Shown one piece after another: positions 51,448 through 58,584 of a stretch of 64,000 nucleotides of DNA; positions within the stretch are counted from its first letter, which is position 1; every line of letters begins with the position of its first letter. A program made the position numbers and the translations under genes. Below the pieces are notes generated by a model. The model was not told the DNA's origin. It worked only from the letters and a program-made list of their open reading frames with translations, and did no database searches. The stretch is from Longimicrobiales bacterium (GTDB lineage: Bacteria; Gemmatimonadota; Gemmatimonadetes; Longimicrobiales; Gaopeijiaceae), in NCBI GenBank assembly GCA_965249725.1, contig OZ252251.1:608001-672000 (forward strand), in the 5' to 3' direction.

Positions 51448-52134
51448 TCAACGGACCTCGGGTCCCCCCGTCCGATCGTCCGGGACGAATCGATCTCGTG
51501 CCGGCATCACCACCGCCGGCAGGGTCTCGGCGTTCATGACCGCGTCCTCAGGGATGATCTCGTTGAGGTAAAGGACGTAGGCCACGGCACCGTAGACCTC
51601 GTTCGGTGTGAGCGAGCCCGGCGACTCCAACGGCATCGTGCGCGTGACGTAGTCGAAGATCGTGGTGGCGTAGGGCCAGTAGTTTCCGACCGTCTTCGTG
51701 TATTGCCCCCGGGCCGCGCCGAACGGGAAGCCCTCGCGTGGCTCGCGACCGACCAGGCGGTCATTCGGACCCTCGGTGCCGGTGGCCCCGTGACAGACCG
51801 CGCACTTGGCCGAGAACACCTGTGCACCTTCGGCGACGGTTGCACCTCCGGGCGGCAAGCCGGCTCCGTCGGGCCGGACGTCCTTGTCCAAGGCGGCGAT
51901 CTCGGTCGCAGTGGCATCCCGGCCGATCTCGAAGGTGGCAGGCCAGTGCGCCGGAGCCGCTGATGCAACCGGAGGGGGCCCGAACCCGGGAGGGGTCTGC
52001 CGCCCGGCCGAACCCTGTCCACTCGGTGCGGCCGCATCAGGCTGGCACGCCGTAAGGGCGACAGCCAGCCCGATCAGAGTCGCGGCCACTCGATGAGAGT
52101 CACGCAATCCGGAGTCGCTACGTGCGCGGCTCAT
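51448..52134 (-). CDS. soxD: SoxD-like c-type cytochrome
   Basis: DVRPDGAGLPPG; CAVCHG; TVGNYWPYATTIFDYVTRTMP; overlaps soxC stop. Confidence 0.82.
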   Translation of the reverse strand: MSRARSDSGLRDSHRVAATLIGLAVALTACQPDAAAPSGQGSAGRQTPPGFGPPPVASAAPAHWPATFEIGRDATATEIAALDKDVRPDGAGLPPGGATVAEGAQVFSAKCAVCHGATGTEGPNDRLVGREPREGFPFGAARGQYTKTVGNYWPYATTIFDYVTRTMPLESPGSLTPNEVYGAVAYVLYLNEIIPEDAVMNAETLPAVVMPARDRFVPDDRTGGPEVR

Positions 52135-53384
52135 GCTGTATCTCCGCTACCGAAGAAGACACGTCCGTCAGCCTGCACGCTCCATGGTCTGATGCTGTTG
52201 TAGTGGTAGGCGCTTCCTTCGCCTCGGGCCGCCATGAGCGTTTCGAGGCTGGGTTGCGTGTATCCGGTCTCATCGATCGCGCGACTGAGCAGAGTGGTCG
52301 CCCGCCCGTCCCAATTCCAGAGGTGACGGAATCGAGTCGTGCACTTGGAGAGCACGGGCTCCTGAAGCTCGGCCGGCTGCCATGTGCGCCCCCCGTCCGT
52401 ACTCACTTCCACTCGAGTGATGCCGCCCCGCCCGCTCCAGGCCAGTCCAGTGATCTCCCACCAGCCACGCTCCGGGAGCACATACGGGAAGGTGGGGAAG
52501 GTGATCGTGGACTTCGCGTCCATCACGAGGCTGAACTGGCGCGAGGTGCCGTCGGCTAGCGGGTCCGTGTACTTGGACGTCTCGTCTCGTGTCATGAAGG
52601 GCCCGTCCGACACCTCGATGCGTCGGATCCACTTCACCTGAGCATTCCCCTCCCATCCCGGGAGGAGGAGTCGGGCCGGGTATCCCTGTTCCGGCCGGAT
52701 CGCCTCACCATTTTGCCCGAAGGCGATCATGGCGTCGTCCCATGCCTTCTCCAGAGGGACGCTCCGGCCCATGACGGCTGCATCGCCGCCCTCGGCCAGC
52801 AGCCAGGTCGCACCGGGCCGCACCCCCACCTCGCGCAGGAGGGTGGCAAGTGCCACGCCCGTCCACTCACTCGTGCTGAGGAGTCCGTCGATCTGCTGCG
52901 GTGAGACTTCGGGGCGGGGCTCGCGGTTGTAGGCCGCCCCACCATTCCCTGAACACTCGACGAAGCAGAGGCGAGATACCGCCGGGAGGCGCTTCAGGTC
53001 GCGCAACGTGAACGTCATGGGTCGCTCTACCATGCCGTGGACCACGAGCGAATACTGTTCCGGCTCGATGTCGGGAATCCCCCCGTGGTGCCGTTCGAAG
53101 TGGAGATCGGCCGGAGTGATGATTCCGCGAAGCTCATGGATGGGAGTCCGTGAGGAAGACGAAGGACCGGGCCGCATTCCCGCGCGTCTCGGCTGTTCCC
53201 CCGGCGCCCTCTGACCCAGTTCGCTGGTCCCCCTTCCAAGCACCTTCGTGGGGTCCGGCGGGGCTTGCTGGGGTGTGGGTTGAGCGTCACCCAAGGAAAG
53301 GGCGTCGGCCTGCGTCTTGAGGAGGCCGCCGGCGATCAGGCCTCCGGTTGCTCCGAGCATCGCGCGGCGTGACAGGCGGGCCAT
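52131..53384 (-). CDS. soxC: SoxC-like sulfite/sulfane dehydrogenase molybdopterin subunit
   Basis: Tat SRRAML; GIITPADLHFERHHGG; FVECSGN (Mo-ligating Cys); RPEQGYPARL; ETSKYTD; GLAWSG. Confidence 0.88.
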   Translation of the reverse strand: MARLSRRAMLGATGGLIAGGLLKTQADALSLGDAQPTPQQAPPDPTKVLGRGTSELGQRAPGEQPRRAGMRPGPSSSSRTPIHELRGIITPADLHFERHHGGIPDIEPEQYSLVVHGMVERPMTFTLRDLKRLPAVSRLCFVECSGNGGAAYNREPRPEVSPQQIDGLLSTSEWTGVALATLLREVGVRPGATWLLAEGGDAAVMGRSVPLEKAWDDAMIAFGQNGEAIRPEQGYPARLLLPGWEGNAQVKWIRRIEVSDGPFMTRDETSKYTDPLADGTSRQFSLVMDAKSTITFPTFPYVLPERGWWEITGLAWSGRGGITRVEVSTDGGRTWQPAELQEPVLSKCTTRFRHLWNWDGRATTLLSRAIDETGYTQPSLETLMAARGEGSAYHYNSIRPWSVQADGRVFFGSGDTA

Positions 53385-53532
53385 GACACCTCCAGAATCC
53401 GACGTTTCGCGACGGGCCCCTCGCGGAGCATCCCCGGAGAGTCCCGAGATCGCCCCTCCCGTAGCGTCTGAGGAGAGCAACCTCCGTCCCGTTCGAGGTC
53501 TCCCGCAAGTCCCCCGGCCGGGCCCTCCCGCG

Positions 53533-53562
53533 TTGACAGGGTCGGCAGGCCCCCTTTAGCGT
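53533..53562 (+). promoter_or_regulatory. Putative sigma70 promoter (TTGACA-N18-TAGCGT)
   Basis: Perfect -35 TTGACA at 53533-53538; TAnnnT at 53557-53562; ATG begins 7 nt after the last -10 base. Confidence 0.6.
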
Positions 53563-53568
53563 CATGGC

Positions 53569-53901
53569 ATGATCTGGTTGCGCGAATGCTTGACCAAGCG
53601 ATTGGGGGCAGGGCTGGCGGTTTGGACGCTGGCCGTGGGGGTTACGATCCCTTTCCTCGATCGAGACCTGCTGGGCTTCGACATCGCCATCGAGGCGGAG
53701 CACCAGGAGGCGTGTAGCGTTCCGGCCCACGATCACACGATCTGCTCCCAATACGGCAAGCATCCGTGGGCGACCCCTCCAAGCGAAGTCGACCCGGCTC
53801 TCCCGCCGTCCATAGTGGAGGCCGTGGTGCATCGGCAGGACTTGATTCCACCGAGGCGCCTTTCCCGCCCAGCGCACCCCCGAGCTCCACCCACCCTCTG
53901 A
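53569..53901 (+). CDS. DUF2946-like leader peptide with Cys/His cluster and C-terminal RAPP motif
   Basis: Hydrophobic segment LGAGLAVWTLAVGVTIPFL; HQEACSVPAHDHTIC; Pro-rich linker; ends HPRAPPTL. Confidence 0.75.
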   Translation: MIWLRECLTKRLGAGLAVWTLAVGVTIPFLDRDLLGFDIAIEAEHQEACSVPAHDHTICSQYGKHPWATPPSEVDPALPPSIVEAVVHRQDLIPPRRLSRPAHPRAPPTL

Positions 53902-53903
53902 GA

Positions 53904-54014
53904 TCCTTCCTGCATCTAGCAGGAAGACCGTGAGCGCGGTGCCCTGACGGCACACGCGCCCCATCGGTCGTCGCCCCTCCCGAGAGACTGGGAGACGGGC
54001 TTTCAGGGGAAGGA
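53904..54014 (+). promoter_or_regulatory. Structured intergenic RNA with anti-SD
   Basis: Hairpins 53906-53926, 53934-53959, 53973-54000; TCCTTCC (53904-53910) is the reverse complement of GGAAGGA (54008-54014). Confidence 0.55.
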
Positions 54015-54016
54015 AA

Positions 54017-55351
54017 GTGAAGCAACAAACCATCCGAGGCCTGAGCCTCTTCATTCTATGTGCCGCCTTCGTGGCGGCTCCGGGTACCGCCCGGGGGCAA
54101 GACGTGTCGCGCTCCCAGGCCGACTCGTTGCGCGCCGAGATCGCCGAGCTTCGGAGCCAGCTCGACAGCATCCGCGTGCTCGTCGCGCAGGGGGGCGCGG
54201 AGCCGGACGAGGAAGATGACGCCCTTGCCCGTCTCCGAGCGGCGGCCCGAGCGGCGGCGGGGGGACCCGAGGCCGACACACCCGCGCTAGACGAGGGCGA
54301 CCAGGAGTTCGTGGGCCGTTCCCGCTCTCTGCAGGCGCTGAACCCCGAAATCAGTGTGACGGGTGACCTCTTATTCTCGATTCAGAGCGAGGACGCCGAC
54401 GCCGACAACTTCGTCCCTCGGGAATTCGAGTTCTCATTCGTCTCGGCGCTGGATCCCTTTTCGAGAGCCAAGATCTTCCTCTCGGCGGAAGAGGAGGGCG
54501 CCCGGATCGAGGTCTTCCCGGGGGCGGAGGAAGAGGCCGATGAGCATGGTCCGGGGCTCGCGGTCGAGGAGGGCTACCTGGAGTGGGTGGGGATCGCCGG
54601 GGGCGTAGGGATCAAGGTAGGGCGCTTCTTCCAACAATTCGGGCAGGTGAATCGTTGGCACAGCCATGCCCTTCAGTTCCAGAGCCGTTCGCTGCCACAC
54701 CTGGCGTTCATCGGGGAAGAGGCGCTCGCACAGGATGGCGCGTCGCTGCGGTGGCTTCTCCCGAACAACGGAGGTGGAGCCTACGAAGCGACCGTCGAGG
54801 TGACGCGAAGCACGAACCATGGCCTGTTCGGGGAATCTCGGGGACCGAGTTACCTGGGGCACTTCAACGCCTTCTGGCAACTCTCCTCAGCGGTCGATCT
54901 GGACCTGGGGTTGAGCGCGATCTTCGGAGACCACCTGGCAGACGGCGTCACCTATTCCAACCGACTGTTCGGAGCCGAGGCGGCGTTGAGTTGGGTGCCT
55001 CCGGATCGGTCCCGGTACCGGGGCGTCACGCTCAGAGGGGGCGTCATGGTGTCCGATCCGGGGGCCGCATCAGGCTCCCCGGCGCCCGAGTCGGCCTTGG
55101 GAATCTGGTCCCTCGCGGAGATCAAGTTGTCGAGGCAGTGGATCGCCGGTGGCCGCTATGAGTGGGTGGAGAACCCCGATGACCCCACGGAGACGGCGTG
55201 GCTGGCATCCCCGGCGCTGACGTACTGGCAAAGCGAGTTCGTTCGACTGAGAGCGGAGTACGATGTGTTGGGCAACCCGGGGGCAACCACGGGCCAGTTC
55301 ACGCTCCGAATCACGTTCGCCATGGGACCTCACAAGCACGAGACGTACTGA
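54017..55351 (+). CDS. Outer membrane beta-barrel protein of metal-uptake loci
   Basis: Signal peptide, coiled-coil N-region, LNPEISV, SALDPF, VEEGYL, FGQVNRWHSH, SEFVRLRAEY, C-terminal GPHKHETY. Confidence 0.75.
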   Translation: MKQQTIRGLSLFILCAAFVAAPGTARGQDVSRSQADSLRAEIAELRSQLDSIRVLVAQGGAEPDEEDDALARLRAAARAAAGGPEADTPALDEGDQEFVGRSRSLQALNPEISVTGDLLFSIQSEDADADNFVPREFEFSFVSALDPFSRAKIFLSAEEEGARIEVFPGAEEEADEHGPGLAVEEGYLEWVGIAGGVGIKVGRFFQQFGQVNRWHSHALQFQSRSLPHLAFIGEEALAQDGASLRWLLPNNGGGAYEATVEVTRSTNHGLFGESRGPSYLGHFNAFWQLSSAVDLDLGLSAIFGDHLADGVTYSNRLFGAEAALSWVPPDRSRYRGVTLRGGVMVSDPGAASGSPAPESALGIWSLAEIKLSRQWIAGGRYEWVENPDDPTETAWLASPALTYWQSEFVRLRAEYDVLGNPGATTGQFTLRITFAMGPHKHETY

Positions 55352-55361
55352 GGGTATAGCG

Positions 55362-56435
55362 ATGATGAAAGCACTAGCGATAGTCGTGATGACGGGTTGG
55401 ATGTCCGGGCTTCACGGGGATGCGGCGCCTGGCGCCGGTCCGGACCGGCAGGAGCCTGTTCGCGTCGTCACGACGCTCCCCGTGTACGCGGATCTCGTGC
55501 GGAAGATCGGCGGAGCCGAAGTCGAGGTGTCCTCCATCGCCGCACCGAATGAGGACTCACACTTCGTCCGCCCAAAGCCCAGCTTCGCAGTACAGATCCG
55601 GCGGGCAGAGATGTTCGTCACGACCGGGCTCGACCTCGAGCTGTGGGTCCCGACCCTTCTCGATCGCGCCGGGAACCGCGATGTGTCCGAGGGTGGCCGA
55701 GGCTATGTGACGGCCTACACGGGGGTCGAGCTGTTGGACATTCCGACCTCGATCGATCGAAGTGGAGGCGACGTCCACGTCTTCGGGAATCCCCACCTGG
55801 TTACCGATCCCCTCCGGACCCTCCGAGTGGCCCGGAACATCACGGTCGGCCTGAAGAGGGTGGCGCCCGAACGGTCTCGAATCTGGGACGTCGGCCTCGC
55901 GCGCCTGACTGAGGAGATCTACGTCAGGCTCTTCGGGGAGACGTTGGTCGAGCTCCTCGGGGGAGATGTTCTGGCCGACCTGGCCTTGAAGGGCACGCTC
56001 TATCCGTTCCTCGAAGTCGAGGAGTGGCAGGGCAGGCCCCTGATTCACGAATTGGGTGGATGGCTCGGAATAGCGGAGCCGTTCCGCGGCCGCGACATCA
56101 TCTGCTACCACAAGAACTGGGCGTATCTCGAGGATCGCTTCGGTGTTCAGTGCGCCGACTACGTCGAGGCCAAACCCGGCATCCCGCCCACTCCCGGCCA
56201 TGTGGCCGATCTCCTCGAGAAGATGTCGAATGAGGGCCTGGACGTGATCCTGGCCGCCTCGTACTTCGACCAGAAGAAGGTCGATTCCGTGGCCCGGCGC
56301 AGCGGCGCCCACGTCGTCGTCGTCCCCATGAACCCCGGAGGCAAGGATGGTGTCGACGACTACTTCGCCCTCGTGGACGACTGGGTCGAGGGATTGGCCG
56401 AGGCGCTCGGTCCGTCCACCGGTCCGTCCAGATGA
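55362..56435 (+). CDS. Metal ABC transporter substrate-binding protein (ZnuA/TroA cluster A-I)
   Basis: VVTTLP; EDSHFVRPKPS; GLDLELW; GDVHVFGNPHL; YHKNW; EAKPGIPPTPGH. Confidence 0.9.
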   Translation: MMKALAIVVMTGWMSGLHGDAAPGAGPDRQEPVRVVTTLPVYADLVRKIGGAEVEVSSIAAPNEDSHFVRPKPSFAVQIRRAEMFVTTGLDLELWVPTLLDRAGNRDVSEGGRGYVTAYTGVELLDIPTSIDRSGGDVHVFGNPHLVTDPLRTLRVARNITVGLKRVAPERSRIWDVGLARLTEEIYVRLFGETLVELLGGDVLADLALKGTLYPFLEVEEWQGRPLIHELGGWLGIAEPFRGRDIICYHKNWAYLEDRFGVQCADYVEAKPGIPPTPGHVADLLEKMSNEGLDVILAASYFDQKKVDSVARRSGAHVVVVPMNPGGKDGVDDYFALVDDWVEGLAEALGPSTGPSR

Positions 56436-56467
56436 TCAGCCGACACACTCTGGCAATGAGGCTCTAG

Positions 56468-57289
56468 ATGCTCGACCTGATGCTCGCGCCCATCGCGGCC
56501 GGCCTCGTCATTCTCGCGATTCATGCCTATCTGGGGCTGCACGTCATCGCGAGGGGGGTGATCTTCGTCGATCTGGCCTTCGCCCAGATCGCCGCGTTGG
56601 GCACTACCGTGGGACTGATGATGGGTGTAGAGCATGGGACACCCATGTCGGTGGCCTTCTCACTCGGGTTCACGCTGATCGGCGCTCTCATTTTCTCGTT
56701 CAGCCGCCTCGAGGAGACTGTCGTGCCTCAGGAGGCCATTATCGGCATCACATATGTCGTGGCCTCGGCGGCGGTCATCCTCATCGCCGGTTTTACGGCC
56801 GAGGGTGCGCAACACGTGGCCGAGACCATGACGGGTACGCTCATCTGGGTGACCTGGCCTCAGATTCTCCGCATGGCTGTGGTCTATGTGGTCTTGGGTG
56901 TCTTCTACTACGCGTTCCGGCATCGCTTCGTCGCTCTGTCGATGCGTGACGACACGCTCGAGCAGGGCCGGCTCTGGGACTTCCTGTTCTACGTCGCCTT
57001 CGGAGTCGTGATCACGTTTTCGGTAGCCATTGCCGGTGTCCTCATGGTCTTCAGCGCTCTGGTGATTCCAGCCGTCGTGGCCTTTCTGTTCACGAGCCGA
57101 TTCCTCGTAGCTCTGGTGTTGGCGTGGGTCGTGGGGACCGCTGCGCTGGTGACCGGAGTGGTGGCGTCCTTCGTACTGGACGTCGCGACAGGACCGTTGC
57201 TGGTATGTACGTTCGGACTGGCGCTGGTCGTGGCACTGCTCGTTCGGTGGGGAACCGGGGTCCAACCCGGAGGCGATCTCCAGGTTTGA
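56468..57289 (+). CDS. Metal ABC transporter permease (ZnuB/ABC-3)
   Basis: YLGLHVIARGVIFVDLAFAQIAALG; EAIIG; GVLMVFSALVIPA; TGPLLV. Confidence 0.9.
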   Translation: MLDLMLAPIAAGLVILAIHAYLGLHVIARGVIFVDLAFAQIAALGTTVGLMMGVEHGTPMSVAFSLGFTLIGALIFSFSRLEETVVPQEAIIGITYVVASAAVILIAGFTAEGAQHVAETMTGTLIWVTWPQILRMAVVYVVLGVFYYAFRHRFVALSMRDDTLEQGRLWDFLFYVAFGVVITFSVAIAGVLMVFSALVIPAVVAFLFTSRFLVALVLAWVVGTAALVTGVVASFVLDVATGPLLVCTFGLALVVALLVRWGTGVQPGGDLQV

Positions 57290-57404: not shown

Positions 57405-57971
57405 TTGAAGCGTCTAGTCTGCGCGCTTTTGGTGGCCACGTTTCCGATCGTGTCGGGTTGTGGTGGCGACGATCCAGTCGGACCCATTGCATCCGGCCCG
57501 ATGCAGTTGAGCATCACGGGCATCGCCCCGTCTGACATCGAAGCCGGAGTCATCGACCGGAACGTCAGCATTACGACTGCAGCGGCCAATCTGTGGCCCA
57601 GCTACGTACGCCTCGTGTCGGACCTGTGTGGTCGAGATCCGGTGGGGTTCTCGATCAACTCGCTCGCGATGTCACTCGACTTCGAAGAGAGCCTGAACGT
57701 CTCGCAACTCGAGGAGGTCTTTGACGGCACCGTGACCATCTACCTGACCGCCGGAGGCGCGACGGTGGAAATCGGTACCGGATTGGTTTCCGGTGCGGGC
57801 CCTGTCACGCTACAGGGCGTCAGCACGGAGGAGGCGCTGGCCGTGCTCTATACCCAGATGCTGGCGGGGACGTTTCAGGTGGGCCTGAGGGCCGAAACCT
57901 CTCGCACCGCCGAGGACGATTTCTCGCTCGACGTGGAGGTGTCCTTCCTCACGCGCGCCTCTTGCCAGTAG
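57405..57971 (+). CDS. Hypothetical lipoprotein
   Basis: SD GGAGG; MKRLVCALLVATFPIVSGC lipobox. Confidence 0.7.
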   Translation: MKRLVCALLVATFPIVSGCGGDDPVGPIASGPMQLSITGIAPSDIEAGVIDRNVSITTAAANLWPSYVRLVSDLCGRDPVGFSINSLAMSLDFEESLNVSQLEEVFDGTVTIYLTAGGATVEIGTGLVSGAGPVTLQGVSTEEALAVLYTQMLAGTFQVGLRAETSRTAEDDFSLDVEVSFLTRASCQ

Positions 57972-58023: not shown

Positions 58024-58584
58024 TCAGAACGACCAGTTCACGATGGGCAGGAACTGAAGGCTCTCCTTGCCACTGATGATGTTGATCAGCCCGATCTGGA
58101 TGCCATGCATGTTCTCGGCCCAGTTCACGATGCCCAGCTGGAACCCCGAGATATCGCGCGCCCGGTTGAAGAAGCCGAACTGAAACGCCTCGCCCCAATC
58201 GATCTGGTTGTAGACGCTGAACCCTTGGACGCCCACGAATTCCTGTTGATTGATGTTGGCCAGGATATTGTTCTGCCACCCCAGGAAGGCGCCCTCGACG
58301 ACGCCCACCGCGCCCCACTGTAGTCCCTTGGACACGCCACCGGTGCTGTGGTTCACCACGCCGATATCGAGCCCCCGAACGGCCACGTTCTTGCTGTAGA
58401 GGCCCAGCCGAAGGATGCGGATCGCGGACTCTTCGCTACGAATCTGAATTGGCGGGAAGAGGGAGAGCTCGAAGTTCTGGACGGAGTCGTCGACTCCGGA
58501 GGGCTGCTGTGCCTCCATCTGCGCGGGGGCAGCGGCGATGGCGATCAAGAATCCGACGACTAGAATGAGCGGAGACGCTCTCAC
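58024..58584 (-). CDS. Secreted LA_2272-like G-x-Q-x-G-x-x-N repeat protein
   Basis: Repeats GLQWGAVG, AFQFGFFN, GFQLGIVN, GIQIGLIN; ends FLPIVNWSF. Confidence 0.8.
   Translation of the reverse strand: MRASPLILVVGFLIAIAAAPAQMEAQQPSGVDDSVQNFELSLFPPIQIRSEESAIRILRLGLYSKNVAVRGLDIGVVNHSTGGVSKGLQWGAVGVVEGAFLGWQNNILANINQQEFVGVQGFSVYNQIDWGEAFQFGFFNRARDISGFQLGIVNWAENMHGIQIGLINIISGKESLQFLPIVNWSF

Follow-up and report, generated by a model that had tools for sequence, protein, structure and literature searches.

A conserved upstream open reading frame ending in RAPP as a candidate co-translational zinc sensor before an ATPase-less uptake operon of Gemmatimonadota

What does a short open reading frame (ORF) that ends in Arg-Ala-Pro-Pro (RAPP) do in front of genes for metal uptake? 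The question is raised by a 64,000-nucleotide (nt) stretch of a Longimicrobiales genome (contig OZ252251.1, positions 608,001 to 672,000; hereafter the window), in which an upstream ORF (uORF) of 110 amino acids (aa) precedes genes for an outer-membrane porin-like protein, a ZnuA-family binding protein and a ZnuB-like permease. An original prediction, made from the letters of the window, had read the uORF as a metal-sensing arrest peptide controlling a Zn/Mn-type uptake operon. The hydrophobic segment, Cys/His cluster, Pro-rich linker, terminal RAPP, 115-nt gap and three downstream genes that it described were all found where it had placed them (Table 1). Our analysis puts the complete explanation, in which a peptide of the CruR/CutF kind would sense zinc during translation and gate a zinc uptake operon, at about even chances, on grounds of sequence comparison and of analogy with these two arrest peptides.

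The uORF is conserved together with the operon. Within the phylum Gemmatimonadota, 119 of 301 genomes had a match to the porin, and 75 loci were compared, consisting of 5 from the search for the nearest relatives, the 30 best of the porin list (one of them the window) and 40 from the middle and end of that list. A uORF ending in R[AGS]PP, an ending which was also the search criterion, stood directly before the porin gene at 69 of the 75 loci, the window included, which bears out the predicted conservation of an arrest-type uORF with a Cys/His site at the head of a metal uptake operon. The nearest named relatives were Longimicrobiales and other Gemmatimonadota metagenome-assembled genomes, and the homologue searches returned almost no informative names. 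Non-synonymous and synonymous substitution rates (dN/dS) against the two closest relatives were 0.225/0.988 and 0.182/0.660, and dN was below dS in 10 of 11 close uORF pairs, the eleventh being out of register. A profile of 48 uORFs found matches in 220/301 genomes (a tally that takes in the unpublished genome G157, which enters no other result) and in 1889 protein clusters (E ≤ 0.001); a second family member was looked for in the window's own genome, and none was found there. Twenty ORFs in this genome end near R[AG]PP, and the uORF alone passed a combined filter for a hydrophobic segment, Cys/His residues and a -10 hexamer. One of seven control motifs put through the same filter also yielded one pass, and the motif pattern by itself exceeds chance modestly. 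We judge the uORF to be beyond chance because it is conserved across relatives, not because of this single-genome pattern. A chance ORF was ruled out by conservation, dN/dS and promoter geometry, and the uORF is, with near certainty, a real gene under purifying selection.

Table 1 Features of the uORF, its promoter and the operon behind it, in positions of the window
Feature	Position	Strand	Evidence
Predicted -35 hexamer (TTGACA) of the operon promoter	53533..53538	+	TTGAC at the same place in 16 loci
-10 hexamer TAGCGT, 6 nt before the ATG	53557..53562	+	predicted leaderless transcript; conserved geometry
uORF, 110 aa, putative divergent CruR/CutF (DUF2946-like) arrest peptide	53569..53901	+	homologues, dN/dS, PF11162, ESM Atlas
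Hydrophobic signal/anchor segment, about residues 12-30, behind a basic N-terminus	53602..53658	+	sequence; predicted helix 2-32, predicted local distance difference test (pLDDT) 90-97
Putative metal site E42, H45, C49, H54, D55, H56, C59	53692..53745	+	69 aligned uORFs
RAPP arrest motif, then Thr-Leu-stop	53881..53892	+	RAPP 58, RGPP 8, RSPP 3 of 69
115-nt intergenic region; hairpin just past the stop (~53906-53926); porin Shine-Dalgarno (SD) sequence ~54006-54014	53902..54016	+	folding
Outer-membrane porin-like protein, 444 aa, GTG start, Vibrio 'omr' homologue	54017..55351	+	E 3.7e-47 to V. campbellii protein
Cluster A-I solute-binding protein (ZnuA family)	55362..56435	+	PF01297, E 7e-38, 131 bits
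ATP-binding cassette (ABC)-3 (ZnuB-like) permease, degenerate ATPase-coupling loop	56468..57289	+	PF00950, E 6e-19, 69 bits

The export segment of the peptide has a hydropathy of 2.0 and a predicted helix, and is predicted to be an N-terminal signal or a transmembrane segment with its N-terminus inside. The Cys and His residues behind it are spaced H45-x3-C49-x4-H54-D55-H56-x2-C59. Across the 69 aligned uORFs, C59 is retained in 68, H54 in 63, E42 in 54, H45 in 44 and H56 in 23, and the absence of a conserved uORF before homologous operons, which the prediction had named as counting against it, was not observed. The linker holds 10 Pro within residues 63–104 and is, over the family, constant in length and variable in sequence. 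The distance from the last Cys to the Arg of the arrest motif is 44–47 residues in 61/69 uORFs and 46 in the window.

Kinship with the DUF2946 peptides, to which CruR belongs, was recovered in part. In the profile comparison that the prediction had proposed, the uORF protein scored 12.5 bits against PF11162 (DUF2946), below the gathering cut-off of 23.7, and 12 of the 69 homologues matched at E ≤ 0.3, one of them above the cut-off. In the ESM Atlas, the closest cluster carries the automatic name putative DUF2946 (score 0.98), and a Gemmatimonadota cluster of which 13% matches PF11162 scored 0.95. The prediction had further assumed that CxxC is replaced here by a mixed Cys/His site. CxxC is kept in 27/69 homologues (10/10 in another class-level lineage, 6/7 in the clade with an ATPase gene in its operon, 11/52 in the remainder), and the window has HxxC and C-x-x-Y instead. 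On the porin tree, for which a root on the ATPase-bearing clade was assumed, CxxC occurs on basal branches and in none of the 15 uORFs of the window's clade (support 0.99). In the sequence alignment, C59 takes the position of the first CxxC Cys and the second has been lost; counted by distance, H56 and C59 stand 49 and 46 residues from the Arg, the same as C90 and C93 of CruR from its R139. In CruR, the spacing of the metal motif matters for regulation (PMC9426467). The window's site is best read as a derived form of the DUF2946 CxxC rather than an unrelated replacement. The uORF may accordingly share descent and mode of action with CruR and CutF while lying outside strict membership, both the Pfam score and the CxxC test being negative.

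How new such a peptide would be can be judged from the published surveys. By the features used for CutF-like proteins (Ozturk 2023), the uORF has fewer than 150 aa, PP within its last 15 residues, a same-strand neighbour within 1000 nt and a Cys/His site, its export signal being read from the sequence and not from SignalP. The same study describes CutF-like clusters whose sites consist of Cys, of His or of both, proposes His-only members as Ni/Co binders and places His-rich clusters before HupE/UreJ Ni/Co genes. The source data of Fujiwara 2025 (PMC12992588) list at least nine RAPP uORFs before genes annotated as zinc-regulated TonB-dependent receptor; most of these uORFs keep CxxC, and the survey text names TonB- and Cu-related classes and no zinc sensing. 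The idea, for which the prediction knew of no example in this lineage, had thus been anticipated. The uORF is new in detail and its class is known, non-copper relatives having been predicted in print and such uORFs standing in a published list. A DUF2946 ORF also heads the Zur-activated czrCBA operon of Caulobacter (PMC4176598). Our literature search, which was incomplete and covered the survey lists in part, found no zinc-sensing arrest peptide, no Gemmatimonadota case and no ATPase-free ABC-3 permease.

The region before the uORF has a distinctive geometry. TTGACA and TAGCGT are separated by 18 nt, and TAnnnT lies 4–10 nt before the start in 49/69 uORFs, compared with 2.1 expected (already corrected for the choice among candidate uORF starts) and 0/68 porin starts. 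SD-like pairing shows the reverse distribution, preceding 3/69 uORFs vs 59/68 porin starts. A sigma-70 consensus scanner did not list the proposed promoter, whose -10 fits the consensus at 3/6 positions. Because of the conserved promoter geometry and the rarity of SD-like pairing before the uORFs, the operon transcript probably starts at the first codon of the uORF and is leaderless, a feature that had escaped the original prediction, as had the missing ATPase described below. The uORF-porin intergenic region, 115 nt in the window, has a median length of 88.5 nt over 68 loci. An intrinsic terminator was rejected as an element of this region, since the window's intergenic region has no terminator-like site and a U-tract occurs in 1/68 such regions; a riboswitch or other known RNA family was likewise dismissed, just two Rfam matches lying far under the cut-off. 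Among copies without a uORF, L008, L023, L050, L065 and L073 (locus numbers of this study) are scattered over different branches of the porin tree, and L008, L023 and L050 show, by eye, a -10-like hexamer right before the porin start, as if the leader had been deleted.

By analogy with studied arrest peptides, the uORF peptide very likely stalls the ribosome. RAPP and RGPP readily give arrest that resists elongation factor P, and proteomes steer clear of RAPP-like motifs except where these serve arrest; in CruR, the ribosome halts at RAPP with the third motif residue in the P site (PMC12992588, PMC9426467). Control of the operon by the uORF in response to a metal is, on the same analogy, also likely, at slightly lower confidence. 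Two other roles were weighed. The uORF product could be a small secreted or membrane metal-binding accessory of the transporter, its RAPP having no regulatory role, and its absence at six loci would fit such dispensability. This is highly improbable, given a linker conserved in length rather than sequence, a uORF that is always first and leaderless, the avoidance of RAPP-like motifs just mentioned, and the precedent of CruR and CutF, neither of which was detected as a stable protein and the second of which acts in cis only. Alternatively, the peptide could stall and monitor Sec capacity or the periplasmic thiol redox state, through a C49–C59 disulfide, and not a metal. Other RAPP peptides do precede sec and thiol-redox genes, and a disulfide between two conserved Cys is conceivable in the periplasm; yet His and Glu are conserved alongside Cys and all classified downstream genes encode metal transporters or TonB receptors, and we regard this role as quite unlikely.

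The downstream genes form an unusual cassette. The porin-like protein is a homologue of the Vibrio protein 'omr', which is annotated as a zinc-regulated TonB-dependent receptor, but the 444 aa found here are too few for a receptor with a plug and a 22-strand barrel, and a test for Plug and TonB Pfam domains gave no match. Its model has low confidence (pLDDT 43.5) and finds porins as best structural matches; its profile found no relative by sequence among solved structures (best E 0.028, on the coiled coil), and a search in plasmids gave no match. The binding protein carries the triad His67/His145/His250 and no fourth Asp, invariant in 65/65 (the window counted twice) and 9/9 aligned rows, and its best solved relative is 5kzj (E 4e-11), which we take to be AztC. 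Three His with Glu or water are the zinc pattern of such proteins and a fourth Asp the Mn/Fe pattern (PMC7731109), and these ligands disfavour the manganese half of the predicted Zn/Mn type.

The permease gene is the sole ABC-3 permease gene found in this genome, and the operon holds no ATPase gene. Eight distant loci carry an ATPase between binding protein and permease, and the SFD coupling motif is present in the permeases of 8/8 ATPase-bearing vs 2/34 ATPase-less loci, the latter conserving H25, D35, E89, D171 and D238 instead. A search profile made from seven of the ATPases at these eight loci scored 489–502 bits in 4/4 control genomes. When 20 genomes carrying the ATPase-less cassette were searched, no ATPase match at E ≤ 1e-45 turned up in 11, the window's own genome being one of them; among the other nine, five had a heme/B12-type ATPase only and four an ATPase beside a different ABC-3 permease. 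The best match in this genome, which is 95.8% complete, is of the heme/B12 type and sits in its own operon. The cluster A-I ABC system of the original prediction is hence present as binding protein and permease and is not complete, as the ATPase is missing and the coupling motif of the permease is lost.

Variants of the cassette and its surroundings were also recorded. At L037-L042 and L055, two ABC-3 permease genes stand in tandem and no ATPase accompanies them; some of these genes carry a HEAT-repeat extension. The permease is followed by a ZIP transporter in L059 and by a heavy-metal-associated (HMA) P-type ATPase in L072. In the window, a lipoprotein-like ORF without Pfam or NCBIfam match lies 115 nt past the permease (57405-57971, + strand), followed by an LA_2272-repeat protein (58024-58584, - strand). 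A molybdopterin oxidoreductase (PF00174, PF03404) and a cytochrome c, presumably a SoxCD/SorAB-like pair, are encoded divergently at 51448-53384 (- strand) and share the promoter region 53385-53568; we do not see them as part of the system.

Which metal would such a peptide sense? A counterpart of the cassette in Vibrio bears on this. All three genes have homologues in V. campbellii (NZ_CP050465.1; E 3.7e-47, 2.1e-59 and 4.7e-37), those of the binding protein and permease being adjacent, and the cassette region there gave no ATPase match and no uORF match. Two palindromic Zur-type boxes lie just upstream, nearly identical to Caulobacter Zur sites (PMC4176598); the box pattern was taken from the first of them, and independent support consists of the second box and the Caulobacter likeness. 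V. campbellii possesses an omr-znuAII-znuBII cluster, the V. parahaemolyticus copy of which belongs to the Zur regulon and is induced 283-, 543- and 1034-fold by zinc limitation (PMC9817125), and a V. parahaemolyticus vpa1307 mutant has a growth defect in the chelator TPEN (PMC3794297). A Zur-type box within one mismatch was found at 0/75 Gemmatimonadota loci (window best, five mismatches), although a divergent Zur or box could escape this search. In 24 genomes, 26 of 40 Fur-family matches could be classified, and all of them, including the two of this genome, were Fur- or PerR-like. Searches of this genome for a ZIP transporter, a ZnuD-like orthologue or CzcA brought up nothing above cut-off.

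Other members of the uORF family extend this context. Of 40 further loci found with the uORF profile, 26 had a gene of TonB-receptor size next, 10 a resistance-nodulation-division (RND) operon and one the porin cassette; at the other three the next gene was cut off. Sixteen receptors were scanned, 14 of the 26 and two from tandem loci, and their best match was ZnuD in 11 and heme receptors in 3, with none at 1e-30 in 2. All six RND pumps scanned exceeded the CusA/CzcA cut-off, and the motif DFG-x3-D[GS]A-x3-VEN was complete in 8/10 and partial in 1; DFG-DGA-VEN is a signature of divalent-metal pumps (PMC3637150). Tandem uORFs occur at L068, L069, L070 and L074, one heading the porin cassette and the second a TonB receptor right after the permease, and at L053:1506-1850 (- strand) a uORF divergent from the porin operon heads a TonB receptor. 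Many of the ZnuD-like receptors are followed by a His-rich lipoprotein of about 155-170 aa without Pfam match (L117, L122, L124, L126, L127, L133, L137). Outside the phylum, Sulfurovum mangrovi (Campylobacterota, NZ_CP087125.1) has the same cassette behind a 118-aa ORF (L208:1256-1612) that contains a His cluster and CxxC and ends in HAPP at a distance of 65-70 residues, possibly a further arrest variant.

Taken together, the Vibrio Zur boxes and zinc induction, the His triad, the ZnuD-like receptors and the divalent-pump signature lead us to favour zinc, which we consider somewhat probable as the main metal from these sequence comparisons; the context favours zinc, leaves room for Co/Ni and argues against copper. 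Of the predicted preference for Zn/Ni/Co over copper, the part on zinc holds, and Ni/Co stays a rival less likely than zinc. That the same arrest switch serves nickel, cobalt, manganese or any divalent ion is rather unlikely: it would suit the His-rich CutF-like clusters before HupE/UreJ genes, an RND signature common to Co/Ni pumps and a site mixing His, Cys, Glu and Asp, but the homologous Vibrio cassette has Zur-type boxes and is induced by zinc limitation, the three-His binding protein lacks the Mn/Fe-type Asp, and ZnuD-like receptors stand behind family members. A copper sensor like CruR, with a cassette importing copper, has family kinship, spacing identical to CruR and CxxC in 27/69 homologues in its favour. 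It is nevertheless very unlikely, as the second Cys is lost in the window's clade and OprC, the copper-type candidate, was the best match at 1e-30 for 0/16 receptors scanned. In addition, 50 and 56 downstream ORFs scanned held no PCuAC, SCO or CopC family and one HMA P-type ATPase (L072), and the RND pumps are without what we take to be the CusA-type signature.

The preferred explanation, zinc sensing during translation, would run as follows. The leaderless transcript would start at the uORF ATG, the N-terminal segment would thread into the Sec translocon, and the ribosome would stall on RAPP, its P site holding Pro107, by analogy with CruR. The Cys/His site, some 46-64 residues from the Arg, would then have just left the tunnel and would probably sit at the periplasmic mouth. 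With zinc scarce, the stall would persist and the downstream genes be expressed; zinc binding would fold the site, and the resulting pull would release the stall and stop expression, much as zinc-dependent folding of a Cys2His2 finger releases a SecM stall in published work. Shut-off could proceed by Rho-dependent termination on the C-rich 3' half of the uORF, or the mRNA could refold so as to cover the porin SD. In CruR, copper releases the stall and Rho termination follows (PMC9426467). Rho is present in this genome, where a second Rho-like gene (G000:C3:1190421-1191554, 479.5 bits) lies just under the cut-off, and the linker is C-rich in 62/68 loci, with third positions leaning to C in 50/68. 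Porin, binding protein and ATPase-free permease would move the zinc, and the peptide would do the job that falls to Zur for this cassette in Vibrio.

The direction of the switch is less firm. Modelling a stall raised the openness of the window's porin SD from 0.21 to 0.40, none of 12 shuffles changing as much (0.20 to 0.28 in a longer model); over 68 loci, 20 showed an opening above 0.15 and none a closing of that size. Against shuffled controls, 19/63 loci ranked in the top two of 13, with about 10 expected and kin not being independent. No family-wide SD-hiding hairpin emerged, the family signal being weak against shuffles. Since the same uORF family also heads efflux operons, direction cannot be read from the family, which suggests that both on and off directions exist within it. 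For the window, we consider it likely that the stall turns the operon on. The opposite logic, that of CutF, would have zinc prolong the stall and turn the cassette on for buffering or export. Copper does so in CutF, where prolonged stalling opens an SD hairpin (10.1101/2022.11.11.516240, 10.1101/2025.02.05.636593), the window's SD opens with a ribosome on RAPP, and ten family members head efflux pumps. Against it, zinc starvation switches on the homologous Vibrio cassette, which also sustains growth in TPEN, the high-affinity binding protein and porin indicate import, and the stall-opened SD is equally compatible with a stall that turns import on; the CutF logic is unlikely here.

Several observations weigh against a zinc-sensing import switch. 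AlphaFold gives the metal-site region a pLDDT of about 50 and no folded site, the ligand sets differ among homologues, as the low retention of H56 illustrates, and 6/75 porin loci have no uORF. In the window itself, third-position C shows no bias (0.48 vs 0.51), and in the family the comparison of SD closure with shuffled controls was mixed (37/63 loci more closed); the presence of the family before efflux operons counts on the same side. The Vibrio link runs at about 25% identity through the V. campbellii genes, not those of V. parahaemolyticus themselves, and znuAII is minor for growth, its single mutant behaving like the wild type (PMC9817125). The ZnuD matches are all far below cut-off, with some small margins over heme receptors, the DFG-DGA-VEN signature also covers Co/Ni pumps (PMC3637150), and 14/40 Fur-family matches were left unclassified, the Zur model being proteobacterial.

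A wider proposal, which we hold tentatively and at less than even chances, is that Gemmatimonadota run zinc homeostasis without Zur, one leaderless RAPP family sensing periplasmic zinc during export and controlling both import and CzcA-type efflux. The import arm would then consist of ZnuD-like receptors and of the porin, binding protein and permease cassette working without ATP. Among natural arrest peptides, the uORF peptide would be the first in the literature found to sense zinc, stalling-based metal sensing having so far been shown there for copper alone, and it would act on a permease of ABC descent that no longer has an ATPase. That a conserved cassette has Zur boxes in Vibrio and a uORF in Gemmatimonadota, a swap of regulators, points to zinc as the ligand and opens the claim to a test by in vitro translation. 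The natural variants (CxxC or HxxC, uptake or efflux, at a fixed spacing of 44–47) offer a series for how a nascent chain encodes metal selectivity and direction.

Compared with ZnuABC and AztABCD, the window shares a PF01297 binding protein with three His and a PF00950 permease, but has no ATPase in the operon, no metal-type ATPase found in the genome, a degenerate coupling loop, and extra conserved His, Asp and Glu in the permease. Vibrio omr-znuAII-znuBII (PMC9817125, PMC3794297) has a homologous porin, binding protein and permease and likewise, in the V. campbellii region, no ATPase match; it is under Zur at its promoter, and the V. campbellii copy lacks a uORF, whereas the window has one. 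ApdA, ApdP and the surveyed RAPP uORFs (PMC12992588) share with the window's uORF the arrest motif and its place close to the C-terminal end of a small protein that is exported. Unlike the window's uORF, ApdA and ApdP precede protein-localization genes. CutF of Rhodobacter capsulatus (10.1101/2022.11.11.516240, 10.1101/2025.02.05.636593) resembles the uORF in its exported nascent chain, Cys/His site and Pro-rich arrest end. It acts in cis on the next gene, turning on a copper oxidase upon metal binding and using an SD hairpin, whereas the target in the window is an importer and its family showed no family-wide SD-hiding hairpin. CruR (Bp2923) of Bordetella pertussis, a DUF2946/PF11162 protein (PMC9426467), is, like the window's uORF, encoded by the first gene of an outer-membrane uptake operon, and the two have in common an export segment, a metal motif, a C-terminal RAPP, a long intergenic region and a Cys-Arg distance of 46. 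They differ in that the window has H-x-x-C plus an upstream E/H/C/H in place of CxxC and scores below the Pfam cut-off. The CruR mRNA also has a leader of 45 nt and the window's uORF is predicted to be leaderless, and CruR precedes a TonB receptor and a PepSY protein, whereas the window's uORF heads a zinc-type porin, binding protein and permease.

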